DNA of 64,000 nt, taken from a virus (lineage: Duplodnaviria > Caudoviricetes). Positions 4,362 to 34,711 of this stretch are shown here, piece by piece. Each line of letters opens with the position of its first letter. The stretch's first letter is position 1. The notes beneath the pieces were generated by a model. It worked only from the letters and a program-made list of their open reading frames with translations, made no database searches and was not told the origin of the DNA. The DNA lies in the IMG/VR virus record IMGVR_UViG_3300021256_000076, positions 35,340 to 99,339 of that record; one strand, written 5' to 3'. The position numbers were made by a program, and so were the translations under genes.

Positions 4362-4804
4362 GTCTACAATACATCAAGGACGGTAAGCAGGTTTCCCTGA
4401 TGAAGTATATACCCAAGGAACTCAATAAGGGTGAATGGATGCTCCAGATAAGGAAGTCCTTCAAGGAGCGTTCAGAAGCCCTTTTTGGGAAGGGTGTGCT
4501 GGTACAGGTGAAGCACTATATGGATTGTAAGAATGACAGGTTCACCATCATGTTCCCTCTCAAACAGCCTCCTTGCGCAAAGGAAGTAGTCAATTCTCTG
4601 ATAGATGTAGTCATAAAGGAAGCAATAGTGAAGTATGAGACAAAAGTGCTCTCTGACCTAAACAATTGTCTCAATGACAACTATAGCATCTACATGGATG
4701 AATTGGCTGAAAAGGAAGAAATAGCCAAGGAGTTTTTCAAGAAAATAAAGGAAAGAATAAATGAAAAGAACAGTAAAGGTAGTAAAACACGACAAGCATG
4801 CTGA
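4358..4804 (+). CDS. hypothetical protein
   Basis: 148-aa ORF with ATGA overlap. Confidence 0.65.
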   Translation: MSLQYIKDGKQVSLMKYIPKELNKGEWMLQIRKSFKERSEALFGKGVLVQVKHYMDCKNDRFTIMFPLKQPPCAKEVVNSLIDVVIKEAIVKYETKVLSDLNNCLNDNYSIYMDELAEKEEIAKEFFKKIKERINEKNSKGSKTRQAC

Positions 4805-5243
4805 TATAGTCATCAATGATAATGGAGACATGTTTGACCTTATAGCCTGTGAAGACTGTAAGGTAACACCAGGAAGACCCTTCCTCATATCATTAGGGCT
4901 ATCCATGGAACTTCCGAAAGGTCTGTATGCAAGATTATATGACAGGAGCAGTACTCCTAAGAAGTTCAAGGTCAGCCTTGGGCATTCAGTGGGTATCATA
5001 GACAACTCATACAATTCAGACAAGGACATCTGGAGATATTCTGCAGTGACCTTGAAGACAGGGCATGGTTCCTTCAGTACTATAAAAGCAGGTGACAGGA
5101 TCTGCCAGTTTGAGATTTGCCTGAGCCAGAGGGCTACAGTATGGCAGAAGCTCAAGTGGCTCTTCACAAGTGGCTACAAGTTCAAGTATGTAGACCATCT
5201 TGACAATGAGGAGCGCGGTGGATTTGGGTCTTCAAACAAATAA
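4761..5243 (+). CDS. dut: trimeric dUTPase
   Basis: FDL, RSS, GIIDNSY, GDRICQF and RGGFGSS motifs. Confidence 0.93.
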   Translation: MKRTVKVVKHDKHADIVINDNGDMFDLIACEDCKVTPGRPFLISLGLSMELPKGLYARLYDRSSTPKKFKVSLGHSVGIIDNSYNSDKDIWRYSAVTLKTGHGSFSTIKAGDRICQFEICLSQRATVWQKLKWLFTSGYKFKYVDHLDNEERGGFGSSNK

Positions 5244-7737: not shown

Positions 7738-7747
7738 TTTCAAAGGT

Positions 7748-7942
7748 ATGAAGACAACAAGAAGAGTAACCCTTACCAAAGAAGAGGTGAATTCCCTTAA
7801 AGAGTTCTGTGATGACAACCTTGAAAGAGGTTAGGTCATCATAGACCAACTTGAACTGTCTGGCATAGGTCTTACTACCAAGGTAATGGTAAAAGACCTA
7901 CCAGAAACTTTAACTGATATAACAGATGTAAGTTCATGGTAA
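7748..7942 (+). pseudogene. small ORF interrupted by one in-frame TAG (7832-7834): readthrough gene or pseudogene
   Basis: Manual translation MKTTRRVTLTKEEVNSLKEFCDDNLERG*VIIDQLELSGIGLTTKVMVKDLPETLTDITDVSSW fills the gap between polA and the ATG at 7944. Confidence 0.7.
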
Positions 7943-7943
7943 T

Positions 7944-10181: not shown

Positions 10182-10658
10182 ATGATACTAAATGAAAAAG
10201 GAAATATAAAACAATTTAATCTGGTAATATATCCAGTTGACTTTGTGGTGGTGATTGGGGATATGGAAGAGGAGGTAAATACTATTTATCAACCTTATGA
10301 GAAAGGTTATGAGGATGCCCATATTGCCCCTCCATCTTCTACAGGATGTACCTACAGAGTAAAGGAAAGAGAGACTGGTATTCCTTGTGTACTAATATGG
10401 ATAGGCAAGAAAGATGAGTTCACCTCTTCTATTGTAGCCCATGAGTGTGGCCATGCAGCTCTTGAGATATGGTGCTTTATCAAATCTGAGGTGTCACTGA
10501 CTAATCAGGAACCTTTCTGTTATCTTCTTGGCAACTTGATGAGACTGGCAGTAGGATGCTTTTATGAGATTCCTGGTATTAAGCCTCCAGTAGTCAGCAA
10601 GGATGCCTTTGAAAACCCTACAAGAGTAAAGAAAAACAAAACAACTAAAAAGAAATAG
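10182..10658 (+). CDS. small zincin-like metalloprotease domain protein
   Basis: VAHECGHAA followed by NQEPFCYLLG. Likely start is the ATG at 10182, just after the previous stop. Confidence 0.65.
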   Translation: MILNEKGNIKQFNLVIYPVDFVVVIGDMEEEVNTIYQPYEKGYEDAHIAPPSSTGCTYRVKERETGIPCVLIWIGKKDEFTSSIVAHECGHAALEIWCFIKSEVSLTNQEPFCYLLGNLMRLAVGCFYEIPGIKPPVVSKDAFENPTRVKKNKTTKKK

Positions 10659-10660
10659 CT

Positions 10661-10867
10661 ATGTGCCTACTTGATATTATGAAGGATGGCAGGTTCTACA
10701 AACAGCTCAAGTATACAAAGAGAGGTATTCCCGAAGAAATTGATGGGAAGATACTGGAGACCTTTGATGACTTTGAGCTTAAAAGCTTTGTTGAAGAGAG
10801 CCTGCCGTCCTTGAAAGGTAAGAACTATAGAATAAGATTTAGCGATGGAAAAATTAGTAGTACTTGA
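10661..10867 (+). CDS. hypothetical protein
   Basis: 68-aa ORF in operon. Confidence 0.6.
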   Translation: MCLLDIMKDGRFYKQLKYTKRGIPEEIDGKILETFDDFELKSFVEESLPSLKGKNYRIRFSDGKISST

Positions 10868-11018
10868 TTATAGCACTTGCACACTGCATGTGTATAATAT
10901 TAAGACAGAAGAGACTATATCAGATGAGTATATTGCCAATCTTGGATATAATCCTGATGCTTGTTACTGGATGATAGGAGATGTGGAAATACTTTATCAT
11001 AAAGGAATTCTCAAATGA
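10845..11018 (+). CDS. hypothetical protein (57 aa, below ORF-track cutoff)
   Basis: Manual translation MEKLVVLDYSTCTLHVY...YHKGILK. Confidence 0.6.
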   Translation: MEKLVVLDYSTCTLHVYNIKTEETISDEYIANLGYNPDACYWMIGDVEILYHKGILK

Positions 11019-11164
11019 AAGGCAAAAGCAGGGCTGACTATTGGAGAAACTGGTATAACAACAGAGGAGGCAAAGCCAAAGTTAAAGCCAGTATCAAGAG
11101 AAGACAACTTGAAAGTTTAGGATATTGGGAAGATATTATTAGTAAAACATCTAAATTTGACTAA
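11015..11164 (+). CDS. small basic hypothetical protein (49 aa)
   Basis: Manual translation MKGKSRADYWRNWYNNRGG...; ATGA overlap. Confidence 0.55.
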   Translation: MKGKSRADYWRNWYNNRGGKAKVKASIKRRQLESLGYWEDIISKTSKFD

Positions 11165-11391: not shown

Positions 11392-11745
11392 ATGAAAACA
11401 ATAGTAACTCCAGTCAACTACACTGATGACCTTGAAAGAATGATGCAAGAGGAGAAATGTGATGTAGTAGGTATAGAGAGTATGTCTATTACATATACTC
11501 ATCCTGCTGATACATGCAGTTCTCCTGATGAGATTCAGTGTATCACCATCACTACACAATGTGGAGACTCCTGTACCATAGAAGAAGCAAAAAACCAAGA
11601 AGGATGCTACTTTAACATCTCAATTCCTGAAGGCCAGCATTGGTCTGTTGATGGTGGAGACTCTCTCAAAGCTCTAATTGATGATTTCAAGAAGAGATTA
11701 TATTTAGTAACAGATAACAAAACTGCTAAAAATAAATCAGAATAA
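11392..11745 (+). CDS. hypothetical protein
   Basis: 117-aa ORF in a tightly packed operon. Confidence 0.7.
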   Translation: MKTIVTPVNYTDDLERMMQEEKCDVVGIESMSITYTHPADTCSSPDEIQCITITTQCGDSCTIEEAKNQEGCYFNISIPEGQHWSVDGGDSLKALIDDFKKRLYLVTDNKTAKNKSE

Positions 11746-11746
11746 T

Positions 11747-11938
11747 ATGAAAATAAATTTAGACAATCCTTCTCAAGAACTGATTGATTTTCTTAAAGGA
11801 GGTGCAATTGGCATAGAAAAGGGTCACAATGAAATTGTACTACATAAGATGTCCAATTTTACTATTGAATGCAGTTCTGATTCTATTGATGATACTTATA
11901 ATAAAGTAATGAAATTAGTTCAATCAAATAGAAGCTAA
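11747..11938 (+). CDS. hypothetical protein
   Basis: 63-aa ORF. Confidence 0.55.
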   Translation: MKINLDNPSQELIDFLKGGAIGIEKGHNEIVLHKMSNFTIECSSDSIDDTYNKVMKLVQSNRS

Positions 11939-11965
11939 ATTCTGACAACACATCGAAGAATAATT

Positions 11966-12319
11966 ATGGAAGATTATGAGATTATTGGATGGCCTGATAT
12001 CCAGGCTTTCATGGAGTTGGATGGCTTTGAAGAGAATGTTACTCTTATTGAGCCTAATGAGTCTATGGGGATTGGCAGCAGCACATACCTTGTTAAGAAG
12101 GAATGGCTAGATTCCTTGGAAGTGGGGGTGAGAATAACCTTCAGAAGTGAAGTGTATCTCTCTGGAAAGACTTTACAGGAAATCAAGAATAAATGGGAGG
12201 AGCTTCCTCTCTACTCTGCTGATGCATTAGAATGTGCCAATGCGGATTTTGTTGAGGTGGTTTCTGTGGAAGGGGCATACAGCCATAAAGATATGATGTC
12301 TGAGTGGAAGAAATCTTAG
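11966..12319 (+). CDS. hypothetical protein
   Basis: 117-aa ORF with WPDIQAFME..GF and GSSTYLV segments. Confidence 0.7.
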   Translation: MEDYEIIGWPDIQAFMELDGFEENVTLIEPNESMGIGSSTYLVKKEWLDSLEVGVRITFRSEVYLSGKTLQEIKNKWEELPLYSADALECANADFVEVVSVEGAYSHKDMMSEWKKS

Positions 12320-12372
12320 AGAACTTCTTATAATATCTTATAACACTTTTTATTAAAGAAATAGACTCAAAC

Positions 12373-12388
12373 TATATTTGTACTTTTG
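12373..12388 (+). promoter_or_regulatory. tandem Bacteroidota -7 promoter boxes (TATATTTG, TACTTTTG)
   Basis: Two adjacent TAnnTTTG matches at the start of a 560-nt ORF-free gap. Confidence 0.7.
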
Positions 12389-12394
12389 TGGCGT

Positions 12395-12842
12395 AAAACA
12401 AGAGTGCAGGCTTGAGTTACAGAAGTTTCGGTGAAATAGGTGGCACTATTTTAGGGCCAATGCTATAAAAAGGAAATTTCCCATTGAGTACTGCACTACT
12501 TGATGGGATTTCTGATTATATAGCATTGGCTATTTTTAGTTCTGTGAATTGTTCCATCAGTTGCTACAAAAAAGCAGGTAAAATCCCAAAGACAAAAAGC
12601 ACCTATCCTACATAGTTTGGTAACAAGACACTAGCCCTGCTCTGTGCGTGCCACCTCACAACAGGCCAAACCGAAGCTAGCAATAGCAATGATAAAGTGA
12701 AAGGATGAAGCTGGAAGGCGAGACTAGGAATTTATCATGGACTGATATTGATTCCCTTGGAGGCATCCCTACTTGTTGCCTAGTCTGGTTGGATTATTCT
12801 GGTCAGTCAGCCCTTCGGGTATAACTTCGGAGGTAAAGGGGC
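12395..12842 (+). ncRNA. candidate large structured non-coding RNA
   Basis: Many stems, complementary loops, GCAA and cUUCGg tetraloops, an upstream promoter and no credible ORF (see findings). Confidence 0.6.
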
Positions 12843-12885
12843 AAAATATGCACTTATATAAACAAATAAAAAAACAACAATCAAA

Positions 12886-13356
12886 ATGAAAGAAGTAAAA
12901 GAAGAAATCAAGAGAGAAGTAGTAGATGTAAATACTTACTATGAGGCTATAGATGGCACAAGGTTCATTAACAAAGAAGAGTGTGTCAAGTATGAAAATA
13001 CAGTATGCTGTGTGCTGATTGCAAGAGCTAAGGCTTTTGCTATTGCTACAGAGGAAGAGCAAGCAATCAATCCTTTTGATGAAGGAGATGAAAATCAGTA
13101 TATCATGCTGCTACCTCAGAAGCAAGAGGATATTGACACTCTCAATCAACTCTATGTATTACCACGCTCAGGAGTATCAAAGGAGCCTTATTTCACAAAA
13201 GAGCATATTGGAAAGCTTATCCTTATGGGATATAGGACTTATAATAATGGTCTTGAGTGGTCATGGTTCAATGAAATGGATAAAGTTATATACACTATGA
13301 CTGGAGGTAAGTATGAATTGAAACTAAAAAGCAATGAAGTGCCTAATGAGAAATAG
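12886..13356 (+). CDS. hypothetical protein
   Basis: 156 aa; YEAIDGTRF..KEECVKYE is a common N-terminus of small phage proteins. Confidence 0.75.
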   Translation: MKEVKEEIKREVVDVNTYYEAIDGTRFINKEECVKYENTVCCVLIARAKAFAIATEEEQAINPFDEGDENQYIMLLPQKQEDIDTLNQLYVLPRSGVSKEPYFTKEHIGKLILMGYRTYNNGLEWSWFNEMDKVIYTMTGGKYELKLKSNEVPNEK

Positions 13357-13483
13357 GGAGTGTCCTCATGCAGGCAGGATGATAATAGAAGGATTCCCAG
13401 AATGGAGAGAGAAAGAAGGTTTTCATGAATACACTGTATGCTATAATGATGAAATTAACAGAGACCCAACTAAATGTAAATAA
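13346..13483 (+). CDS. hypothetical protein (45 aa)
   Basis: Manual translation MRNRECPHAGRMIIEGF...PTKCK fills the gap. Confidence 0.45.
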   Translation: MRNRECPHAGRMIIEGFPEWREKEGFHEYTVCYNDEINRDPTKCK

Positions 13484-13485
13484 CT

Positions 13486-14085
13486 ATGGCAAATATGGCA
13501 AGTGTAGCTTACGCCATTGAAGGCTCTAAGGAACTTTTGGAAAAAATTGAAAAGGCTATCCTGAAGCATCCTGTGACAGAAGGAGCAGATGAGCATTGGG
13601 AAGGAGACATTCTTAATGCACTTGGCTGTAAATGGATCAGCAGGGATGAAGACAGGGAGAATGGCAAATATATGAGAGGCTTCATATTTGATACTCCCTG
13701 GTGGGGAAATGACAGCCATACTGTTCTTAGGTTCTCTGCCGAGGAGGCTTGGGGTATTACTAATTTCTATGAAGTGCTGGAAGAGAATTTCCCAGACATC
13801 AAAATCTATTGGATTGTGGAGGAGAGCGGAGAGGAAATCTATGCCACCAATGACAAGGAAGGAAAGTATTTCCCAGATAGATTCTATGTGGATGCCTGTA
13901 TAGATGGGGAGTATCAGATGGATTACTTTACAAATGAGGAGTCCATGTACAAATGGATTGCAGACATCACTAAGAACAGAGTGAAGACTCCTGAAGAAGT
14001 AGAGGTATTCAATGCTGACTATGAGGACTCTGCTGCTGAAGATGAGAACTTCATCATTATACATAGATTTGAAGTTATGGATTAA
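13486..14085 (+). CDS. YubB/DUF1281-like ferredoxin-fold protein
   Basis: MAN..S...I.G start, LRFSAEEAW and ENFPDIKIYW..EE.G. Confidence 0.55.
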   Translation: MANMASVAYAIEGSKELLEKIEKAILKHPVTEGADEHWEGDILNALGCKWISRDEDRENGKYMRGFIFDTPWWGNDSHTVLRFSAEEAWGITNFYEVLEENFPDIKIYWIVEESGEEIYATNDKEGKYFPDRFYVDACIDGEYQMDYFTNEESMYKWIADITKNRVKTPEEVEVFNADYEDSAAEDENFIIIHRFEVMD

Positions 14086-14096
14086 TTTAAAAGATT

Positions 14097-14276
14097 ATGA
14101 ATGTTAGAGAATTAAGGACATATCCTGGCTTTAAAGAACACATGGAGAAAATAATGTCTGGTGAATGTGATGACTATGATGTTTTAATTCAAGTTAATGG
14201 ATATGCGGCACCAGCAACTTTTGTTAATGTGGATGATAAACTTAAAACTGTCTGGTTTGCAGGCAGAGATGATTAA
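14097..14276 (+). CDS. hypothetical protein (59 aa)
   Basis: Manual translation MNVRELRTYPGFKEHMEK...FAGRDD. Confidence 0.5.
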   Translation: MNVRELRTYPGFKEHMEKIMSGECDDYDVLIQVNGYAAPATFVNVDDKLKTVWFAGRDD

Positions 14277-14327
14277 TTAATAGCTATGGAAATAGGTAAA
14301 GAAACTCTATAATAAAGAGTAACTATC

Positions 14328-14362
14328 AAGGAGAAGGATGATTGCCTTCTCCTTTCTTTTTT
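14328..14362 (+). terminator. intrinsic terminator ending the replication/small-gene block
   Basis: AAGGAGAAGG-7 nt loop-CCTTCTCCTT followed by a T-tract. Confidence 0.85.
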
Positions 14363-14428
14363 CAATACTAACCCTTAATAGGCTTAAAGGTTTTACTTAT
14401 TTTATCATGGTTTATCAAGTAAAAGTAT

Positions 14429-14436
14429 TACCTTTG
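14429..14436 (+). promoter_or_regulatory. -7 promoter box for the RNAP/cargo operon
   Basis: TACCTTTG 30 nt upstream of the ATG at 14466. Confidence 0.75.
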
Positions 14437-14465: not shown

Positions 14466-17400
14466 ATGGCATCACCGAAGTGTTATATAGTCAATAGTAG
14501 AATTGATGGCAAGATTGCTGAATGGTTTGGCTGGTCTCCTCAAATGGGTAAGAGAGGCATGAATCCTGCTAAGATAGCTTCTTTGCGAGGTCTATATGAC
14601 CAGCAGGCAGAAGAAAAGGGAATAGAACCTTTATTGCCTATGGATAATCCTACAGATGAGGACCTTGAGAAGGCTGCTAAGGCTTTGATGAAGTTCAGGA
14701 CTGGCATTAGGGAATCCCATAGAGCAAGAATGGCTAGAGGTACCAAGCATATAGATAGGGCCTACGATACATTAAGGCACTCTTACTCTCTTCATCAAAG
14801 GCAAAGCAGAATCAGCCTTATCTCTAATCTCTTTTCAGAAGAGGTTGACAGACTGATGGAAGGAGGAAAGGCAGATCGTCAGAAATATGTTAATGGTTTT
14901 TCCACTATCAGCGGTGAGTTTGTTGGAGGAGAATTCTCTATTCTTGAAGGAGTTTATAATAATTTATTAGAAATTCGTGCAAACTACTATAGGTCTGCTG
15001 ATGACCCGAATACCCACTTTAATAACCTGAAGCAGGCTACTATTGAAGCTGAAGGCAGAGGAGAACTTGGTCCTCTTAGTTTTGCCGGTGCCCCTCAGAC
15101 TGTGGAAGAATACAGAAAAATGTCTCAGCATTGTTATGAGGAATATACTAAAGTGCTGGAAAACTGGGATGAGCTGGTTCCTTTTGTACTCAAAGATCTG
15201 GTAAAGAAAGAAGGTGTTAAGATTGGTGTCAAGAAAGAATACGCTGTAGCAGCCTCTTCAGATAGTTTCGGTGATAATGATATTGCAGCCAAGTGGGATA
15301 TGTCTGAATCCAAGCGTGATGGTTGGATGGAAAACTCAGACCTTCAAAGCTCTTTTGGTTCTGTTGGTCAGCAAGTCAGAAGAATACTTGCCACTGTTCC
15401 CATGATGGAACAAGAGCCTCATTTTGTCCCTGCAACAAATCTTGACGGAACTCCTTATAGGAAGTATGTAGGCATGAAATCCATTCCTGTTGTAGATGAT
15501 TTAGGCAATCAGGTCTTCATGGATCCCATGAAAACTCATCAGGAACTTCAGGAATTCCTTAAGGGCATACAGAACTCTGAGGACATGCTTTATAAGATGT
15601 GCAAGAAAGGTAAGCCTGGAGAAGCCAAGATCCCTTGGATGCAGCCTATTGTAGATGTACTGATAAGCAATCCTCAGGCAAGCACTCAGTTCTTCTGTGA
15701 TTTCAAGAGAAACTTTCAGCCTTATTCTATTATGTTTGATGATAAGGAAGAGGGCAATAGCTTTATCCGTAAAATCAAGACAAGGGTACTCAATAAGGCT
15801 AAAAACTATCTGAAGGGTAAGTATGACATGACAATATCTTCTAAGGGTAAGCTTCCTGCTAACTCAAAGGTGTGGATTGAAAAGAGCCAGGTAGTTTTTG
15901 ATGAAGACACTAAGGAAGTAAACTGGAAGAGACTTGCAGAGCTTCGTCAGGAAGTACTGAAATGGACTAAGGAAGATACTGCGCCTGTAGAAAATGAGCA
16001 GCAGGGTCTTGACCTTCGCACTGCTAAGAAGTTTGGAGTTTCAACAGCCCCACTGATTAATAATGCCAGAGATGCCTCTATTGTTGTTGACGGCAAGACT
16101 CAAAGGGTTACCTATGAGATGAAGCGTAAATTCCTGATGGATGTCTTCTCGTCTCTTGGGTATGATGTAACTGTAGATACTATTGATAGTATTCTCCAGT
16201 CAAGGGATATCTATACTGTCAGAGAACAGTTGGAACAGCTATTTGACTCAACAGGTAAGACAGGTCTGGTTTATATGCTTGGCGAGAAAGGAGGCTTTAA
16301 TGAGCGTAAAACCTTCAAAGAGATTACTTCTGGAAAGAAGGATATCAGAGAAGCTGCTGTAAAAGCATTGTCTGATAGACATATTAAATTCAGAAGTCTA
16401 TATCAAAGACCTTCAGATAATGGAAGACCTATCCAGGAACACTCAGAAAAGTTGTTGGATACTATCAGTAAACATCAGGAAGGGTATAGAGTAGAATCGA
16501 GAGTTAGATACAATGGTAATACCATGTACTCTTTTGTTTCTCCTTCTTATCTGGGTGATAGACTTGAGGTTATTCAAAGCTACGTTGAAGCTGATAATAA
16601 GATTGGCTTGTTACAGTTCTTGAGAAATGAGTACCTTAATAGTCCTTTCTTTGTAGATGACGAGTATCTTGCTTATAATGGTGCATCTGGAAGAATTCTT
16701 AACATGTGGCTTTCTGACATGGTAGCTGCTTGTAAAGATAGAAAAACTCCTTTGATGGAATCTGTAGCTGCTATCTTCAACTATGAGAGGGATCTTGGAA
16801 GGGAAGATAAGAAATTTGAAGACTTTACAGCTAAAGAACATGGTCTGGATATGTTTGTGCATTTCTTTGCAGATGAGCAGCAGAGAAAAGGATATGGAGG
16901 AAGAGGAACCAATAATCTCCAAAAGAAGCTTTCAGCCATGTATCCTGTGTTTATTCTTGGTGATGCTGGTGTAAGCAAGTATATCAGAGCACCTAGAATA
17001 TCTTCCGCTGTTCCTATTGACAAGAATGGGAATGTGCTTGATATGGCAGATGCTGGAAAGAGGGTTAAAGTTGAGTATAGGTTTGACAGTGAAGCTCAGG
17101 AAAAGATACTGGATGCCTTCTGGGATGTTTATATGCAGGAGAAAAGGCGTATGGCCATGGATGAAGCTATGACCTATAAGATGTATGCCAACGGCAAGGA
17201 AGTAAAACATCCTAAGGGAGAGTTTTCTATTCTTACATTCTTCAATGATGAGAACTATTCTATCCCGCAAGGTAAAGAGTATGACAGCCCTACAATTAAG
17301 GCTATCATTCGCCAATATCTGGAAGATGCATCTATTGGCAGTGATACTCTGAAGAGCAAAGGAAGAAAGTCTTTTAAACAAAGAATGGAAGATCTTGGTA

Positions 17401-20400: not shown

Positions 20401-22958
20401 CTGTGCTGAACTTCCTTAATCTGAACACCATTACTGCAGATTCTGGTGCTTTGCTGGCAAGACTCGGTTATAACACCAAAGAGATAGGTCTCTTATTTAA
20501 CCAGCCTATTATCCGTAAGGTATGTGAGGATGCATTTAATAAGGGGTACAGCAATGCCAAGACCGCCATTGATGATGCTGTCAAGCTGCTGATGGATCAC
20601 ATGACTAGCTTTAATCCAAATGAGGCCATCCCTTTGACTGAGCAGGACCTTGCCTCTGGTATTATCGGAGAAAGGCTAATGCTGGAAGAGGGAAAGTCAC
20701 AGGAAGACTTCTTTGCAAATAATGCTAGGATGCAGATGCAGGCTTTGATGCTCTTCAATCAGATTTATAGTGCTGCTCAGGACATTTCACAGTTTGTCAT
20801 GAACACTAAGTTTACTGCCTCTAATGCTGTCAGTTCAACCTTCGGAGGCATGTATGCCCAGCAGGAGAAAGTTGATAAGTATGTTGATAAATTCCCAGGC
20901 AAGAAGACTGAAAAAGGCACACTTACATATAAAGTGGTAGTTGTTCAGGGTGCTCAGGAAGCAGGGTTGTTTGCAATGCCTATTGACAACAATGAGAAGT
21001 ATGTCACTATGTCAAAGAAGGAGTACCTTCACACTGTCAGGTTCAATCCTTTTGCATATGAGCAGGCTATGTATGATACCAATAGAAAGGCCATAAAGCT
21101 GCTGGCAAAGTATTTCCCTTATGAAAAGCCTTTGTATAAAGGAGTAAGGGAAAAGATGCAGAGTCTTGCAAGATATGGCTCTCTGTCTGAAGATGACATT
21201 AATGCTGTACATAGCAATGTTCCTGTAGCCTTACTGGCCAAGCAGACCAGTTCACTATTCAACGGAGAGAAGCTTCATGAAGGTACAGATGTTACCAATA
21301 GAAAGTACTATCGTGAAAAATTCGCTTCTATCCTTGCTGATAAGATAGCTGCTGATCCAGACGGCTTAGGCTCTTTGGCAATCTTCAAGTATCTCTATCC
21401 TTCTTCTGAGACTGTTGTAACAAGTATAGATCCTGTCACAGGTTTGGAACATACTGATGAAGTCTGGAAGATATCAATGCAGGACATAGGAGGCATGGAT
21501 GCTGATACTAAGGAGGAGATAAGGGAGTCTTGGGCTTATCTGATGGAAGTTAAGGATGACGGACATTTTGATAGTGTTGAAATGGCTGAACTTGGAAGAG
21601 ATCTTTTCATGTATTGTTACTATCAGTTAGGGTTTGACTTTAGCCCTATGTCATTCATGCATCTGGCTCCTACAGCTGTCAAGGACAGTATTCCTGTACC
21701 AAGAAGTGAAAGTCTTGCTCCTAAGCACTGGAATCAGGAAGAAGGAATCAAACCTAATTCTGATGATGTATATGTATGGTCTCCTTCTATGGTTGGAGGA
21801 GCTGAAAGAGCTTCAGATGACTTTGATGCAAATCTTGGATATACAGACGAACTGTCAGGTAACTCTTTCCAATTATCAGATATGAAGCCCAACAACTTCA
21901 GAAAGTTAATTGAGGAGGCTACCAGCCATCCTGAACTCAGGTTTAAGCTGGCTATGGATTTAACTCAGGATGAGTTTGATGCTTTTGCTGGAGCTGGCGG
22001 AGATATTCCTTCCAACATCTACTTCTCTCCAGCTACAAGGGCTGAGACCTCTAATGGTAAACCTTTGTCTTATGGAAAAAACAGAAGTTACAGGCAGTTC
22101 CTCTATGAAATCCTTGATGGCACCGAGCAGGGTCTTAACCAAGATGAGTTTGCCCAGATGTGGATTCTTAATCACTTGAATAATCCAAGGTTTGTGCTGG
22201 ATACTAGTAAAGGAGGAGAAAGACTAAGGGAAATCATTAAGGAAATGGTTCCTGTAAGTGCTCAAAGAGAAGGCACTGGGTATAAAGCAACTATATCAAT
22301 AGATGTTAGTAAATATCAGAATGAGCAGGATAAAAGTGCCGTGGAGGACCTAGTATCTATAACCAGGGATCCTCAAAGCAAAAGGATTGTAGAAAGTAAA
22401 TGGTGTCCATGTATCGTCATTAATGGCTCCTATTATCTGGCAGAAAGTGGTACTGACTTAGGGTTCAATATTAACACTGATGTCAAGATTGACTATCGTA
22501 AGTATGAGCCTTGGGGAGGTGCAAAGACTATTGAATATGATAATGGTAAGAAGCTTCTTCCACAGATGCAATACAGGTCATCTTTATCTGCTACACCAGA
22601 AAAGGCAGATGATAAGCCTGTTGATTCAATGGCTCCAACTCAAGCCTCTAACGACTCTAACCTTACTTCTGAGGGGGCTACCACTCCTTCTACTGAGCCT
22701 TCTAATAGTGAAGGAGCTAATATCAATATGACACGTCAGCAAATGGAAGACTATGTGTTTGATGAGTATTTCAGAGCGTATCTAAAATATGATTTTGCTT
22801 CTCCTGAAGACAAGGCGTTGATAGCCAATATGCGCAGGGAGTTGAATTCTAAATCAGAAGAAGACTTAAGTGCTGAGATTGATAGGATCAGAAAAGCCTG
22901 TCGGGATAAAGGTGTTATGATGTTGGATAATCAGGGCAATCCAATGCAAGGATGCTAA
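14466..22958 (+). CDS. virion-packaged crAss-type RNA polymerase (phi14:2 gp66-like)
   Basis: 2830 aa; TDGQGY, QPIKP, YRIPT and the catalytic GFDFDIDK (19440-19454) match the DFDID motif of Crassvirales virion RNAPs. Confidence 0.92.
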   Translation: MASPKCYIVNSRIDGKIAEWFGWSPQMGKRGMNPAKIASLRGLYDQQAEEKGIEPLLPMDNPTDEDLEKAAKALMKFRTGIRESHRARMARGTKHIDRAYDTLRHSYSLHQRQSRISLISNLFSEEVDRLMEGGKADRQKYVNGFSTISGEFVGGEFSILEGVYNNLLEIRANYYRSADDPNTHFNNLKQATIEAEGRGELGPLSFAGAPQTVEEYRKMSQHCYEEYTKVLENWDELVPFVLKDLVKKEGVKIGVKKEYAVAASSDSFGDNDIAAKWDMSESKRDGWMENSDLQSSFGSVGQQVRRILATVPMMEQEPHFVPATNLDGTPYRKYVGMKSIPVVDDLGNQVFMDPMKTHQELQEFLKGIQNSEDMLYKMCKKGKPGEAKIPWMQPIVDVLISNPQASTQFFCDFKRNFQPYSIMFDDKEEGNSFIRKIKTRVLNKAKNYLKGKYDMTISSKGKLPANSKVWIEKSQVVFDEDTKEVNWKRLAELRQEVLKWTKEDTAPVENEQQGLDLRTAKKFGVSTAPLINNARDASIVVDGKTQRVTYEMKRKFLMDVFSSLGYDVTVDTIDSILQSRDIYTVREQLEQLFDSTGKTGLVYMLGEKGGFNERKTFKEITSGKKDIREAAVKALSDRHIKFRSLYQRPSDNGRPIQEHSEKLLDTISKHQEGYRVESRVRYNGNTMYSFVSPSYLGDRLEVIQSYVEADNKIGLLQFLRNEYLNSPFFVDDEYLAYNGASGRILNMWLSDMVAACKDRKTPLMESVAAIFNYERDLGREDKKFEDFTAKEHGLDMFVHFFADEQQRKGYGGRGTNNLQKKLSAMYPVFILGDAGVSKYIRAPRISSAVPIDKNGNVLDMADAGKRVKVEYRFDSEAQEKILDAFWDVYMQEKRRMAMDEAMTYKMYANGKEVKHPKGEFSILTFFNDENYSIPQGKEYDSPTIKAIIRQYLEDASIGSDTLKSKGRKSFKQRMEDLGILETVDARKGKAIVKTYRNISSIATPENIDDKIREFYWNTKLATAQQLQIMTIDPSFYHGTKDLQKRYKEIHAPGTVLDVKAVDFDGQLYCPERYTTRNGVSHTIPAGTECVAYFDDVRVDADETNKEFMDVMRKVFKDNPEIVEEYKKNTLTDGQGYRTLTSYRRVMGMAGRWTKDQDEAYKAIMQIRSRHIADDSDTTPEELEQIAKLAVVLQPIKPYMFTHEKYPIKINKKDSNSNDVIGTDGNPVKIDAYQLIPVQHKYAEALIIPELMPKGSKLRDLANWMEAHEVDMVGSTKIGKVGVFGQAKLEGITDKAGLETAMSAAYIHELPYSDYRIQTNVPEHINSSQLFGTQVRKLIMSGLDMRDDYTSYLENATGFNGTINLSTSTDENDSNKKASLRGRNLLALYNSLICANIMDSYDKFAQNAGDIEALADMLQQSTVGSTREAMDNLFSYVVTGNEKAFKKFLIPLFEGGLEHDSAALILSTFKKIVNKQQISGGSAVQVSAFGIDGYEKDGGLRYVADPDNDANILYAEIEMPFDKSFMLDVKDANGNVTKQPVSLSYDKYCYSNGYLIPTGEAIEEKLPNGKINPIWKKYQSYTYKEVDGKLVPCKFDDQNAEVYKPLIEEEYPDILSILAYRIPTERDYSMINCQIKRFTQKTAGGTLKVPPQGTTIAGFDFDIDKLYFMQREYHKHYNDKAYVESNFSDRDKLDIWSIFFDANPEIKQALEAARAEAESKDSNLVDYVPIIRKGVDTGRKRLHHKTTLNSYWDAANIEKGFGKNKGVAFMETAQSEGIKPTQNVSTNTTEWMESYDFDKSPEENTRAARNNLLITLIQARLMDPATAKQRYTPGGFANASKAARLMRELFHGDLTGVYSNGRVDMAALERRQDSDTDPEPNYDPTDPYTMLVYNQQNQVAAKLIGIFANQNTNHAFASSMDVFELLESISFCGKSAKDLLYKPAPNASQQEKDRLADKRAEIDLNMAEFLAASVDAVKDPVLNFLNLNTITADSGALLARLGYNTKEIGLLFNQPIIRKVCEDAFNKGYSNAKTAIDDAVKLLMDHMTSFNPNEAIPLTEQDLASGIIGERLMLEEGKSQEDFFANNARMQMQALMLFNQIYSAAQDISQFVMNTKFTASNAVSSTFGGMYAQQEKVDKYVDKFPGKKTEKGTLTYKVVVVQGAQEAGLFAMPIDNNEKYVTMSKKEYLHTVRFNPFAYEQAMYDTNRKAIKLLAKYFPYEKPLYKGVREKMQSLARYGSLSEDDINAVHSNVPVALLAKQTSSLFNGEKLHEGTDVTNRKYYREKFASILADKIAADPDGLGSLAIFKYLYPSSETVVTSIDPVTGLEHTDEVWKISMQDIGGMDADTKEEIRESWAYLMEVKDDGHFDSVEMAELGRDLFMYCYYQLGFDFSPMSFMHLAPTAVKDSIPVPRSESLAPKHWNQEEGIKPNSDDVYVWSPSMVGGAERASDDFDANLGYTDELSGNSFQLSDMKPNNFRKLIEEATSHPELRFKLAMDLTQDEFDAFAGAGGDIPSNIYFSPATRAETSNGKPLSYGKNRSYRQFLYEILDGTEQGLNQDEFAQMWILNHLNNPRFVLDTSKGGERLREIIKEMVPVSAQREGTGYKATISIDVSKYQNEQDKSAVEDLVSITRDPQSKRIVESKWCPCIVINGSYYLAESGTDLGFNINTDVKIDYRKYEPWGGAKTIEYDNGKKLLPQMQYRSSLSATPEKADDKPVDSMAPTQASNDSNLTSEGATTPSTEPSNSEGANINMTRQQMEDYVFDEYFRAYLKYDFASPEDKALIANMRRELNSKSEEDLSAEIDRIRKACRDKGVMMLDNQGNPMQGC

Positions 22959-22985
22959 GTGTATAATAGGATAACAAGATAGAGT

Positions 22986-25900
22986 ATGAGTAAATCATGT
23001 ACAATTTTAGCTCATGTAAGAAGGCCTAATGGAGAAATAGTGGAAAGCAGGTTATTTAATGACCTGCTCCACTATACCTCTAATAACAGGGAACTGGCCA
23101 AGGAGTATTATGCAGTAGGAACTAATGAAGACTTTCTTTCTAGAGTAAGAGATTCTGAAGAGTTTCAGACTGATGAGAATGGAGAAATTACCTTTAAGTC
23201 TTTGAGGTCTTTATCTAAGATGGACATTGAGACTGATAAGGTGGTTCAAGTACTGAATCAGGATATTGGGCAAGGTGAGTACTCCTATGAAGAAGCTCTC
23301 AGGAGAATTCAGGAATTCAATGAGAACAATAGCTGGTCAGATAAGATGCTAGCTACCATGGTTCCTTTAGGCAATGGCAAGTATTTTGTATCTGTAGTTC
23401 CTCAGACCAAGACAGTTACAAGTGTCGAAGGGAAGGAGGAGGTGGAGGGGAATGCAATTAATGAGAAGAAACAACTCCACGATGTAGTTAGAAATGAGGA
23501 ACTTGAAAGAAGAATCAAAGGATTATTAAGAAGCCATGGTGTATCAGTAAAATTCCTTGAAGGGGACAGGCAAGGTGGCAGGTATTCTACTGAGAATGTG
23601 TCTGCCATGGAAAATGGCCTCTATGGGCTTATAGAGGTTAATGAGAAGGGCTATGTAACTGATGTCTTAGCAGAAGAAGCAGGCCACTTTGCTGTAGCCG
23701 CCTTAGGAAATAATCCTCTTGTACAGAGATTGGAGAAGCTTCTTGGCAACAAGGAAACTCAAAGGGAGGCTCTTGGTGAAGACGAATATGACAATGCTGC
23801 TCTTGGTAATAATCCAGCAAGAGAGGTTGCAGGCAGATTAGTAGGTAAAGCCCTTCAGAGAAAACTTGACAACAATGCTCCTTTCAAAGTACTTGCTAAC
23901 AGGATAGCCAATCTTGCTAAGAGAGTTTTCTATAACTTTACAGGCAATGAAATGAGGTGGGCTGCTGCAAAAGCAGAACAGGTGGCTAATAGGATTGCCT
24001 ATCAGTTTGTAGAAGGCAATAATAAATTTTCTGTGCAGAATGCCTTAGACATTAAAGAAACTATGAGGGATGCCAGCTTAACTATAAATCAAAAAGTCTA
24101 TAGGGATACTATGGATGAGCTTGGCAGAATGGTCAAAAGGCTGGATGCAATATCACAAGACCAATTTGCAGGGCAAATGCAGGCCTCTCAGGCAATGGCA
24201 ATACTGGCAGGTACCGATAGTACTACCGGGCAGAATGCACTTCAAATGGATACCTTTGCTGACGCTTATGCCTTTGATGGGATTGTGCAAGCTCTTGTTC
24301 AGGTAACTGATTACTTAGGGCCTGGCAAAGAGATTGACCAGATGATGAAAGCTGTTAATCTAGAGAATCCATCGGAGTTTTATGCCAACATGGCAAGGAA
24401 TGGCAGATATCTTAGACAGGCAAGAACATTCCTTAGAAGTGCAGAGATTATCATTGACATGTTAGATAGAGTCACTAATGGTGTAGGAAGTAATCAAATA
24501 AAGCTAGCCAATGGGTCAACTATAAATGATGTCAGATACCAAGATGAGAATGGCACTTGGAAAAGTATTGATATGAAGAATGCTATTGTCACCTATAGGA
24601 ACATTATCGCATCTGCTAAAAGTGAATTGACAAATCTTGAAAGTGCCTATTTTGCTAAATTCTGCGAAGATATATATGGAAGCAAATACATTACTTCTAC
24701 TGCAGGAGTACTTTGGTCTGATATCTGGCAAGGAACAGAGCCTTTAGGTGAGCAGTCCAAAAGTATTGCAGATATGGTTAATGGGGAGGGCATGGAAGAT
24801 ATTGATGTCTTTCATAGGTATCTTGGTTCTATGTCCAACAATCCTGATGTCATTGGACAGATTGCAGATAAGTTGGTAAAGACTGCCAATAAGACCGCCG
24901 ATGATATGACTATTAAGTATCAGGAGCGTCTTATGGTTCTAAAGGAAAGGGCAGAACAGTTGGGGTTAGATGTTGCTGATTTAGTGGAAAGAGATGAAAA
25001 CGGCATTCCAACAGGAAATATAATTACTCCTCCCGCTGCTCCTACACAGGAAGGCAATAGAGAAGAAGACTTTATTTATGATGCTTATATGGCAGAATTT
25101 GATTCTGTCCCTGCTGTCCATTATGGTAAATGGGAAAAAGCAAGAGAGGAGCATAAGAAAAAATACTGGGAAAAGTTCAAGGAAGATAACCCTGATTGGG
25201 AATCTATGTCAGGCTTTACAAGAGGCTATAAGTGGGATCAGTATTACAGAGAAGAGTTTAAGAAATGGAATGCTACCAATAGCATAAAGGTTGAAGTAAA
25301 AGATGCCTCAGGAGAAGTACTTTATATAAAGTGGGTGCCTAATTTAATTTATCAGTCAGATCAGTGGGATAGCCTGAAAGCAAAGTATCCTAACAGAAAC
25401 GGAGATTCTTTGGAACAGTGGCTTTCTGACTACCGTAAAATCAAGGAAGAGCTTGACTCTATGCTTCCCACTGGTTCTACTGTATCTCATAGGCTACCTC
25501 AGTTTAGAGGTACTTTCATGAACTCTGTCAGGAATTCCATGCCATTAGAGAAAGGGCCGTTCAAGGCAGCTAATGCTTGGAGAAAGACTTTTGGCCGTAG
25601 GGTTATTTTAGAAAGTTTTGTAGAAACTTCTGAAGATACTGATTATGGAAGTTTACACACTATGAACTCTGTCGATGACGAGCTTCTTGGAACCAAGTTG
25701 AACTATGAAGAGGAAAGAGCCCAGAGAATACCTATCTTTGGTGTCAATAAGATGCAGAATATGCAAGATCTTTCTACTGACCTCTTCCACTCTATGCTTT
25801 CTTATGCTGCGATGGCAACTAGTTATCAGTGCTTGGATAATGTAGTGGATGGTCTTGAAGTAGGAAGGGAAGCTCTTTATAATCGTAAGATTCAAGGAAA

Positions 25901-33252: not shown

Positions 33253-33816
33253 TTATCTTACATAGGGGAACACAAGCTTCTCAGGATAGCCCTTGGTGAT
33301 GTCATAGGCAATTACTCCGTCAGCATTCTCAATAGCACTTACTTCTGACTTGTGTCCTTCAGTCACATTGAGAGCGTCACCTGCATATACCTCTACGGCT
33401 ACAAGCATCTGTTTCCATGCGCTGATGGGGAAGGAGAACTCCTTGCCTCCGAACCACTTTGACATGGAATCCCTGCCTATTGCCTCATTGGCACTTATCT
33501 GCGTTGCAAGCTGCTGTCTCTCTGCCACAGTAAGCCACATCTGTATGTCACCGAGGTAGAAGGAGTTCACATTATCACTCTTGTCATAGTCCTCAATCTG
33601 GCTAATCCTGTACTCCTTGATGTCAGGAAGGGCAATGGCCTTGATTTCCTCAACATTATCACTCTGTGTCTCTACTTCTACCATCACAGCCATGTACTGG
33701 ATGTTCTCACCATAAGGCCTCTCTGACTGGTCAAAGTAGAAGTTCACCTTGTTACTGTCAATACGTTCCGTCTGAGGAAACTGCTCTGACTCTCTTATTA
33801 TCTGTATTGCTTTCAT
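33253..33816 (-). CDS. DUF4376-like tail-fibre-associated protein
   Basis: I.DYD.S.NVNSF...MWL...R, E.YA.DA.NVTE.H and YDITKGYP motifs. Confidence 0.75.
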   Translation of the reverse strand: MKAIQIIRESEQFPQTERIDSNKVNFYFDQSERPYGENIQYMAVMVEVETQSDNVEEIKAIALPDIKEYRISQIEDYDKSDNVNSFYLGDIQMWLTVAERQQLATQISANEAIGRDSMSKWFGGKEFSFPISAWKQMLVAVEVYAGDALNVTEGHKSEVSAIENADGVIAYDITKGYPEKLVFPYVR

Positions 33817-33832
33817 ATCTGTATTGGTTTAA

Positions 33833-34711
33833 TTAGTGAAAAAGAATAAGCCCTGCGACAGAATAAGCAGTCGACGCACTGGTAAAGGACGCATAGCCGC
33901 AGTCATTCGCAAAAGCAGCATTATTTGCACTAACAATGTCTCTTAGCCAAGGATACTCATCTCCAAATATATCTGTATACTTATAGTGTTTAAACACTTC
34001 TAATTGTTGGCATGCTTCTCCAGTATCATATCCACTTGAACTCCATACAATACTACCATAAACTTGTATCTCTGAAAGAGCGCTTATATACTCGTTGGAA
34101 TAAGCCCATTCAGATGAACATCCTGAATTAAAACCTAATCTATTATATCTTTCACTATCTACATAGCTACTCAATAGTTTATTATGAGCTATCAAATTAG
34201 ATGCACCCAAGTCTGTTCGTGCTAATGGTAATACCGTGTTTTTCAAATAATAATGAAGGTCGCAGTTTAAATACCCAGCACCACGGCTATTTTCTCCAGT
34301 ATAAGTATTTCCGCTTTTGTTCCACTTTTGTGTTGTATGCGGTATTACAATAAGACCAACATGATTAACAGTTGCTGTATCCGAATTAGTTCCTTTCATG
34401 CAATTTAATCCTGCAATCACATACGTATGCCCGTTTATTGTTTTTTGGTCTCCTACTTTTAATCCATACTTTTCAAGGTTCTGGTCTGCTACGGCCTGTT
34501 TCAGCACATTAAGGTCAAAGTCAGTGAGCCTTGTGTGCCTTGTGAGGGCATCCACCTGTGCCTTTGTATAGAAGGAGTCTGTAGAAGCCTTCTGTGACAT
34601 TACGGCTGTTGTTGACTGTCCAGTGGCCTGTACTACCTCATTCTGCACAACATTGACACCGACAACAGTCTGATAGTTGCCGTTCTCGTCCTTGTATTTT
34701 AATACTGCCAT
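33833..34711 (-). CDS. tail-associated receptor-binding protein (DUF6273/CLec-like C-terminus), probable DGR target
   Basis: VVQATGQSTTAVMSQKA fibre motif; LSEIQVYG and WLRD...F...G.A...AS....V C-terminus. Confidence 0.65.
   Translation of the reverse strand: MAVLKYKDENGNYQTVVGVNVVQNEVVQATGQSTTAVMSQKASTDSFYTKAQVDALTRHTRLTDFDLNVLKQAVADQNLEKYGLKVGDQKTINGHTYVIAGLNCMKGTNSDTATVNHVGLIVIPHTTQKWNKSGNTYTGENSRGAGYLNCDLHYYLKNTVLPLARTDLGASNLIAHNKLLSSYVDSERYNRLGFNSGCSSEWAYSNEYISALSEIQVYGSIVWSSSGYDTGEACQQLEVFKHYKYTDIFGDEYPWLRDIVSANNAAFANDCGYASFTSASTAYSVAGLILFH

Follow-up and report, generated by a model that had tools for sequence, protein, structure and literature searches.

In mammalian guts no phages are more abundant than the Crassvirales, and Bacteroidales are the known hosts of these crAss-like phages. 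In Bacteroidota the -7 element of sigma-A promoters is TAnnTTTG, and the chromosomal sRNAs of Bacteroides, for example GibS, have -7-box promoters and intrinsic terminators. Phages have antisense and immunity RNAs as well, such as the c4 RNA of P1 and P7 and the CI RNA of P4, the loops of which are complementary to sites on their own transcript. Morons, as described by Hendrix and colleagues, are autonomous inserts of promoter, gene and terminator between conserved phage genes. The T4-type phages contain promoter-early stem-loop (PeSL) cassettes (PMC2839356, PMC4122927), in which promoter and terminator motifs mediate shuffling (PMC2839356). In the Crassvirales no regulatory or decoy RNA is established according to our literature searches, and those for sRNAs of crAss-like phages returned nothing relevant.

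The window analysed here is a stretch of 64,000 nt that covers bases 35340-99339 of an IMG/VR virus record of 99.3 kb. Inside a dispensable cassette of this phage we found a real, conserved and strand-specific structured RNA module of ~150 nt. An earlier sequence-only reading had described the same place as a single promoter-driven RNA of ~450 nt with two loop-mediated tertiary contacts. We suggest instead a candidate for a new, narrowly distributed phage sRNA-like module, and not a 450-nt ribozyme-like RNA.

The gap and its surroundings

The portal protein of the phage is 55-57% identical to those of the crAss-like cr128_1, the IAS virus and the Bacteroides phages DAC15 and DAC17, and the phage encodes a family A DNA polymerase and very large proteins. 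On these grounds we assign it to the crAss-like phages. Related DNA was seen in metagenomes of bovine and other animal guts. Two stretches are concerned in what follows:

12320-12885: gap of 566 nt free of ORFs, between + strand genes of 117 and 156 codons
12321-12863 (+): non-coding cassette of ~545 nt, present or absent as a whole, after the stop codon of the 117-aa gene and before the spacer of the 156-aa gene

The gap had been called free of ORFs, and this is correct under table 11 and with any single stop codon reassigned; all three kinds of stop are present in all six frames. Recoding of TAG, TGA or TAA was considered and rejected, as it opens no frame in the gap, and so was a decayed gene, for which tblastx searches of 70 loci and of the genome of the phage itself returned no match. 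A protein-coding gene of the moron type is absent from the cassette, with stops everywhere, no tblastx match, and frame-breaking indels in relatives (at 12607 and 12741). Neither iterons nor repeats were found within the gap, and the k-mers that it has in common with other gaps of the genome are at chance level. ARAGORN detected no tRNA or tmRNA in the window; two tRNA genes, Glu-CTC (43-115) and Arg-CCT (13988-14060, both in record coordinates), lie in the part of the record before it.

The two genes flanking the gap belong to a run of small genes for which neither Pfam nor PHROG has a family. These neighbours are ORFans of mosaic presence, as is typical of accessory early regions. The 156-aa protein (12886-13356), itself without a Pfam or PHROG family, has at least 25 gut-metagenome homologues of 37-94% identity, with the invariant core YEA.DGT.F...EC.KYE, EDID.LN and W.WF. 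The region from 11700 to 13490 is a mosaic in which contigs join 11703 to 12870, 11747 to 11966 and 12122 to 13485. The last of these joins occurs in one locus (L003), where the cassette, together with the 3' half of the 117-aa gene before it and the 156-aa gene after it, is replaced by three other small ORFs.

For 11400-14400 we compared the window with metagenome contigs of four runs, which came from different studies. In runs X3, X15 and X4 there are contigs that pass from 12313 straight to 12864 or 12869 with only ATCTAG(AAAT) between, and in these cassette-minus phages the 156-aa gene stands ~25 nt after the 117-aa gene. The gene that precedes the 156-aa homologue ends no more than ~60 nt from the start of the latter at 21 of 24 loci, and within ~205 nt at the other three. 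Because the distant relatives are gapless as well, the tight junction is the older state and the cassette an insertion. The cassette is dispensable since there are relatives without it, and this excludes an essential origin, primer or core ribozyme. The gap is therefore best explained as a dispensable, horizontally exchanged non-coding cassette in a variable early region of a rumen crAss-like phage.

The conserved module and its pairings

We collected ~60 loci by scanning IMG/VR with the neighbouring proteins, and gap-like DNA was present in two of them, L026 and L027, which are identical rumen metagenome contigs (L027 below). Window 12321-12531 is 71% identical to L027 4356-4562 overall and 77% identical in the core. 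The similarity begins at the stop codon of the upstream gene and extends as far as the 3' end of a long hairpin, and the global alignment of this conserved part has a z of +26 against shuffles. The L027 gap is likewise ORF-free (570 nt), and the genes that flank it are unrelated to those flanking the gap of the window. The one protein common to both is the 156-aa homologue, which has 42% identity and in L027 is found 900 nt upstream. As the remaining ~350 nt have neither similarity nor a fold signal, the portable conserved unit is the first third of the gap. The features of the cassette are as follows:

12373-80 and 12381-88 (+): tandem -7 boxes TATATTTG and TACTTTTG, read from the sequence by the motif TAnnTTTG
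12392-12540 (+): module A, candidate small RNA of ~145-150 nt, from folding, conservation in L027 and sliding windows
12403-12447 (+): 5' stem-loop domain of 45 nt, on which the MFE folds of the window and L027 agree
12403-12409 (+): segment X, AGUGCAG, complementary to both Y and Z
12443-47 (+): segment Y, GCACU, which closes the 5' stem with X
12455-12531 (+): long interrupted hairpin of 31 bp, from the consensus pairs of the two sequences
12456-67/12519-30 (+): its outer stem GCCAATGCTATA/TATAGCATTGGC, from reading the sequence
12479-90/12497-508 (+): its inner stem, from reading the sequence, flagged as terminator-like by a scan
12491-12496 (+): apical loop Z, CUGCAC, candidate pseudoknot partner of X
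12532-12538 (+): T-run ATTTTTA directly 3' of the hairpin, from reading the sequence (TTTCTCTTTTTTC in L027)
12541-12863 (+): module B, non-coding and unstructured, from folding, coding and L027 comparisons

The gap had been thought dense with meaningful pairings. As a whole, the 470 nt of the proposed RNA fold little better than dinucleotide shuffles (z -1.9 for the + and -1.8 for the - strand), and the signal comes entirely from 12392-12540: module A has a folding energy of -51.9 kcal/mol and a z of -5.9, its counterpart in L027 a z of -7.1, and 120-nt sliding windows reach z below -3 solely within 12360-12570. On either strand module B folds worse than its shuffles (z +2.1 and +2.0), and it has inverted repeats of 6, 7 and 8 nt as often as they do (P 0.40, 0.41 and 0.22). 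Compared with the equally long stretch of L027, it has no similarity (z -0.3), and there is a fold signal in neither phage. The distance from the hairpin to the next start codon is 355 nt in the window and 359 nt in L027, with unlike sequences. In close relatives module B is nearly unchanged; record 17 of run X3 has 5 differences in 238 nt. The same record is 84% identical to the window up to 12468, continues with 82 unlike letters that replace the hairpin, and is 98% identical over 12538-12775. This switch across 12468-12538 shows that modules A and B recombine separately.

Fold signals were also looked at elsewhere. Three further ORF-free gaps of 500-600 nt in the first 35 kb of the record (record 10442-11035, 22472-23053 and 33528-34026) have none comparable to that of module A. 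A 206-nt gap after the DNA polymerase gene (window 7738-7943) has a z of -4.3 as a whole and down to -5.4 in 120-nt windows, and holds a 17-bp hairpin and two other hairpins.

In the 5' domain, AGUGC (12403-07) pairs with GCACU (12443-47) around an inner helix GCUUG/UAGGU. The inner helix is ACUUG/UAGGU in L027 and the closing stem there is AUGC/GCAU, so that a closing G-C pair of the window corresponds to A-U. The long hairpin had been read correctly: both strings of the outer stem are where they had been placed, within the strongly structured module A, and their 12-nt inverted repeat is rare (P 0.004 in shuffles), the sole rare repeat of the 470 nt. Between the window and L027, its 31 pairs include one compensatory change (U-A to C-G), five pairs with a one-sided change into or out of a wobble and one other position that is mismatched in L027, a basis of very few events drawn from one independent homologue and fragmentary variants. 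Among those variants, loose contig ends in run X2 with GCCAATAC...GTATTGG carry a double change from G-C to A-T at 12462/12524. The hairpin wobbles of both sequences are all G·U when read on the + strand (7 of 7, none A·C), and because of this the + strand fold is 13 kcal/mol better than that of the - strand. Such a bias argues that selection acts on the + strand RNA rather than on the DNA, and it bears out the direction given in the sequence-only reading.

The sequence after the hairpin is TATTTTTAG in the window and TTTCTCTTTTTTC in L027. In both, a stem-loop is directly followed by a T-run as in an intrinsic (Rho-independent) terminator, and judging by sequence the hairpin with its T-run looks like one. 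The bounds of module A are predicted, from the -7 box for the start and from the T-run for the end. The conserved structured unit, which ends in the hairpin and T-run, thus has ~150 nt and not the ~450 nt claimed before. A 172-nt contig of run X15 (12402-12571) was considered as a transcript and rejected, because this is the usual size of low-coverage contigs. Among the sequencing runs listed as containing the stretch, none was an RNA run. We also rejected a type I toxin-antitoxin: a 43-codon TTG frame at 12484-12615 ends after 6 codons in L027 owing to a 1-nt insertion in the loop. In an unrelated IMG/VR phage (L063 at ~1598-1624, L064 at ~2703-2729), the arms of a terminator, CCCATTGAGTA/TACTTGATGGG, are identical to the inner stem; the two have the 11-nt arms in common, while loop, flanks and context are all unlike module A, and we take the identity as a coincidence.

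Two contacts between loops had been proposed. In the first, the apical loop Z (CUGCAC) is complementary to GUGCAG at 12404-09, which would form a pseudoknot, and this proposal gains from matched changes in L027. The L027 counterparts of X, Y and Z are GAUGCAG, GCAU and CUGCAUC; X and Z have each gained a base, so that they are complementary over 7 nt there. It is qualified by the fact that X can close the 5' stem instead, a pairing that changes in step too (Y is GCAC in the window and GCAU in L027). Without loop penalties, the X:Z duplex amounts to about -9 kcal/mol, and freeing X costs 1.3-1.9 kcal/mol. For a given 6-nt loop, a complement is present in 11-13% of shuffles of the 470 nt. The pairings X:Y and X:Z are mutually exclusive, and two sequences are insufficient to decide whether one of them or both, as in a switch, would be used.

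The second contact, a kissing loop, is unsupported. The hairpin AAATAG-GTGGCA-CTATTT (12434-51) and the 9-nt match 12438-46/12648-56 are both present, but 34% of shuffles of the 470 nt contain an inverted repeat of at least 9 nt, and the contact is not conserved in L027, where the presenting hairpin is without its 3' arm; the partner lies within the unconserved module B. The other elements listed for the 3' part fare similarly. All of the short stems exist, and those in 12541-12842 are at chance level, as is the GNRA-type hairpin GCTA-GCAA-TAGC (12676-87). The two CTTCGG strings (12813-18 and 12826-31), read as cUUCGg loops, are there with stems of only one to three pairs, and the MFE fold pairs the two strings with each other (CCUUCGGG/UUCGGAGG).

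Both -7 boxes had been correctly recognised; they match TAnnTTTG, and the gap contains no others. The second box aligns with TATTTTTG of L027 (4416-23). The motif is enriched in the window (86 observed against 56 ± 7 expected) and occurs in the correct orientation 20-85 nt upstream of the operon starts at 14466, 8227, 44341 (-), 60885 (-) and 32870 (-):

14429 and 8141 (+); 44370, 60905 and 32897 (-): -7 boxes of operon starts

As to the -33 element, only TTTA (12349-52) sits 20 nt before the first box and a TTTG at canonical spacing is not evident; a conserved TTTTA block lies 28-29 nt ahead of the conserved box in the window and L027 alike. The claim of a promoter-like -7 box ahead of a strongly structured + strand RNA is supported.

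A clean operon boundary at 14328-14436 gives the reference look of terminator and promoter in this phage. A canonical terminator at 14328-64 (AAGGAGAAGG...CCTTCTCCTT and a T-run) is followed by the -7 box at 14429, 30 nt ahead of a 2830-codon gene; the promoter of the giant polymerase gene comes just after the terminator. L027 has a 19-nt direct repeat, 79% identical, at 4404-4422 and 4883-4901 (479 nt apart). One copy overlaps the -7 box of the cassette and the second is found close to where the L027 gap ends on the right; the repeat is absent from the window and could be a recombination patch.

Module A, which the earlier reading could not assign, belongs to no known family, and its distribution appears narrow. 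Rfam 15 at gathering thresholds gave 0 matches in the 64-kb window, and at E up to 10 over 12000-13200 the best hits had 14-24 bits against thresholds of 40-85 and were snoRNA and miRNA noise; the families covered include ribozymes, group I and II introns, 6S, C4 and Bacteroides motifs. Nothing similar was found by blastn in GenBank phages. Scans of IMG/VR with three DNA patterns gave chance matches only, one of them the L063/L064 terminator, and a pattern scan of GTDB genomes gave 0 matches. The neighbour-protein scans of IMG/VR revealed no further cassette, BLAST and a covariance model found no additional copy in 29 related virus records, and a search of 59 loci and 30 virus records with the two-sequence covariance model yielded no other member. 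In the 99-kb record itself, module A is single-copy, with only the self match by BLAST and covariance model. A phage target was sought with RNAduplex in 130 start regions; the best value was -40.9 against -39.7 ± 2.1 for shuffled RNA, with no outlier.

Readings of the module

From its sequence, module A is a candidate for a phage-borne sRNA or a leader, without a known family and of narrow distribution. The reading that we tentatively prefer, with a probability of about 0.45, is an accessory + strand small RNA of ~145-150 nt, made from a host-type promoter within the dispensable cassette. Host RNA polymerase would start a few bases past the -7 box at 12381-88, near 12393. The transcript would consist of the 45-nt 5' stem-loop and the 31-bp interrupted hairpin, and transcription would end at the T-run 12532-38 with the hairpin as intrinsic terminator. 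In the RNA, AGUGCAG may pair with GCACU to give the closed 5' stem, or with the loop CUGCAC to give the pseudoknot. Such a small RNA would most likely act in trans, perhaps as a regulator or decoy in host takeover or counter-defence. In favour of this reading we count that the fold signal is confined to module A and recurs in L027, and that the module is conserved there though the flanking genes are unrelated. The pairing-preserving changes of the hairpin, the enriched -7 box and the T-run kept in both sequences count for it as well, and so do the crAss-like nature of the phage, the precise absence of the cassette in relatives and the ORFan setting.

One point against the small RNA is the ~350 nt of non-coding DNA 3' of module A, which is unaccounted for in both phages. 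The missing -33 TTTG at canonical spacing and the want of an outstanding target in the phage start regions also count against it. Another point concerns the genes that follow. A + strand -7 box is missing from 12389 to 14064 and a canonical terminator does not follow until 14328-64, so the genes at 12886-14276 depend on polymerase that passes the hairpin. Good termination would leave them without a recognisable promoter, which favours a leaky or regulated terminator and a role in cis. The main rival is accordingly a cis-acting leader for the 156-aa, 49-aa, 199-aa and other genes, in the form of an attenuator, an antitermination element or an RNase III-type hairpin, in which the alternative pairings of AGUGCAG would control the amount of transcription or mRNA that gets past 12886. 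Two exclusive and co-varying pairings of one segment are a hallmark of a switch, the 31-bp interrupted duplex is longer than the usual terminator stem, and a long untranslated stretch 3' of module A is what both phages have. However, neither pairing touches the terminator stem, hence there is no classical terminator and antiterminator; the downstream genes of the window and L027 are wholly different; relatives have the 156-aa gene expressed without the leader; and known leader families gave no match. On balance we regard the leader as a serious but doubtful alternative.

A bolder version of the small RNA would be a new family of mobile, stand-alone sRNA genes in crAss-like phages, built as a three-way switch around the 5' heptamer. 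We consider it unlikely. If it were true, the heptamer would alternate between its own stem and the apical loop of the terminator, with the specificity letters drifting in step from phage to phage like those of the c4 immunity RNAs of P1 and P7. The RNA might then help the phage to take over the host or to counter its defences, for instance by regulating host mRNAs or by serving as a decoy to an RNA-sensing defence, and the unlike 350-nt tails would be a second, lineage-specific functional part.

It is also conceivable, and in our opinion rather improbable, that the cassette works at the level of DNA or of the transcription unit, as a mobile promoter-terminator insulator and homology patch of the PeSL kind, the RNA itself having no function. 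The composite of a promoter and a terminator-like stem-loop fits such a cassette, as do its place among shuffled ORFans, the occurrence of the same module between unrelated genes in two phages and the recombination breakpoint at the hairpin (12468-12538 in record 17 of run X3). Against it, PeSLs are repeated elements, whereas this module is found once per genome and is absent from 29 related virus records. In addition, the interval between promoter and hairpin holds ~65 nt of conserved structured sequence with co-varying pairs, and the strand-specific wobbles indicate selection on RNA.

The RNA of ~450 nt (12373-12842), with two tertiary contacts and a function as ribozyme, scaffold, decoy or replication primer, is the least credible reading by far: although all of the listed complementarities exist, the MFE fold of the whole region has a large domain closed by the 9-nt match, close relatives preserve the 3' part well and T12815C in relatives turns U·G into C-G in a small hairpin at 12811-32, the 3' 320 nt fold worse than shuffles on both strands with stems at chance level, the 9-nt match is itself at chance level with its hairpin incomplete in L027, where the 3' part of the gap is unrelated, the terminator-like hairpin and T-run divide the proposed transcript, close relatives without the whole gap rule out an essential primer or origin, and there is no sign of catalysis and no Rfam ribozyme match at E up to 10.

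Relation to known systems

Our claim is a modest one and rests on one structured module of 150 nt in two independent sequences. Its interest lies in the fact that a portable sRNA gene which near-identical phages gain and lose would offer a tractable way into the interplay of crAss-like phages and their hosts, and natural genomes with and without the cassette exist for comparison.

Module A resembles the Bacteroides sRNAs named at the outset in the TAnnTTTG promoter, an RNA of 100-200 nt and the terminal hairpin with a U-run, and differs in that it is phage-borne, has no Rfam similarity and shows no identified conserved single-stranded seed. With the c4 RNA of P1 and P7 and the CI RNA of P4 it has in common that it would be a small, hairpin-rich phage RNA with a loop complementary to an upstream site, and that loop and site change together across related phages. 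Unlike c4 and CI, it stands outside any immunity context and has no known target gene, and neither its sequence nor Rfam gave a match to them. Nor are crAss-like phages known to be temperate.

As a piece of DNA, the cassette can be compared with morons and PeSLs. Like a moron, it is a discrete and dispensable insert between adjacent genes, missing in close relatives, and it has a promoter and a terminator-like hairpin of its own; unlike a moron, it contains no protein-coding gene, so that its product would be RNA, and ~320 nt of unexplained non-coding DNA follow. Like a PeSL, it combines a host-type promoter with a terminator stem-loop in a hyperplastic ORFan region, occurs as the same motif beside unrelated genes and has a recombination breakpoint at the stem-loop. 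PeSLs are short motifs, many per genome, with a stem-loop that serves upstream transcription, whereas this cassette is single-copy. Its promoter lies upstream of the hairpin, which it would transcribe, and between the two there is a conserved and co-varying 5' domain.
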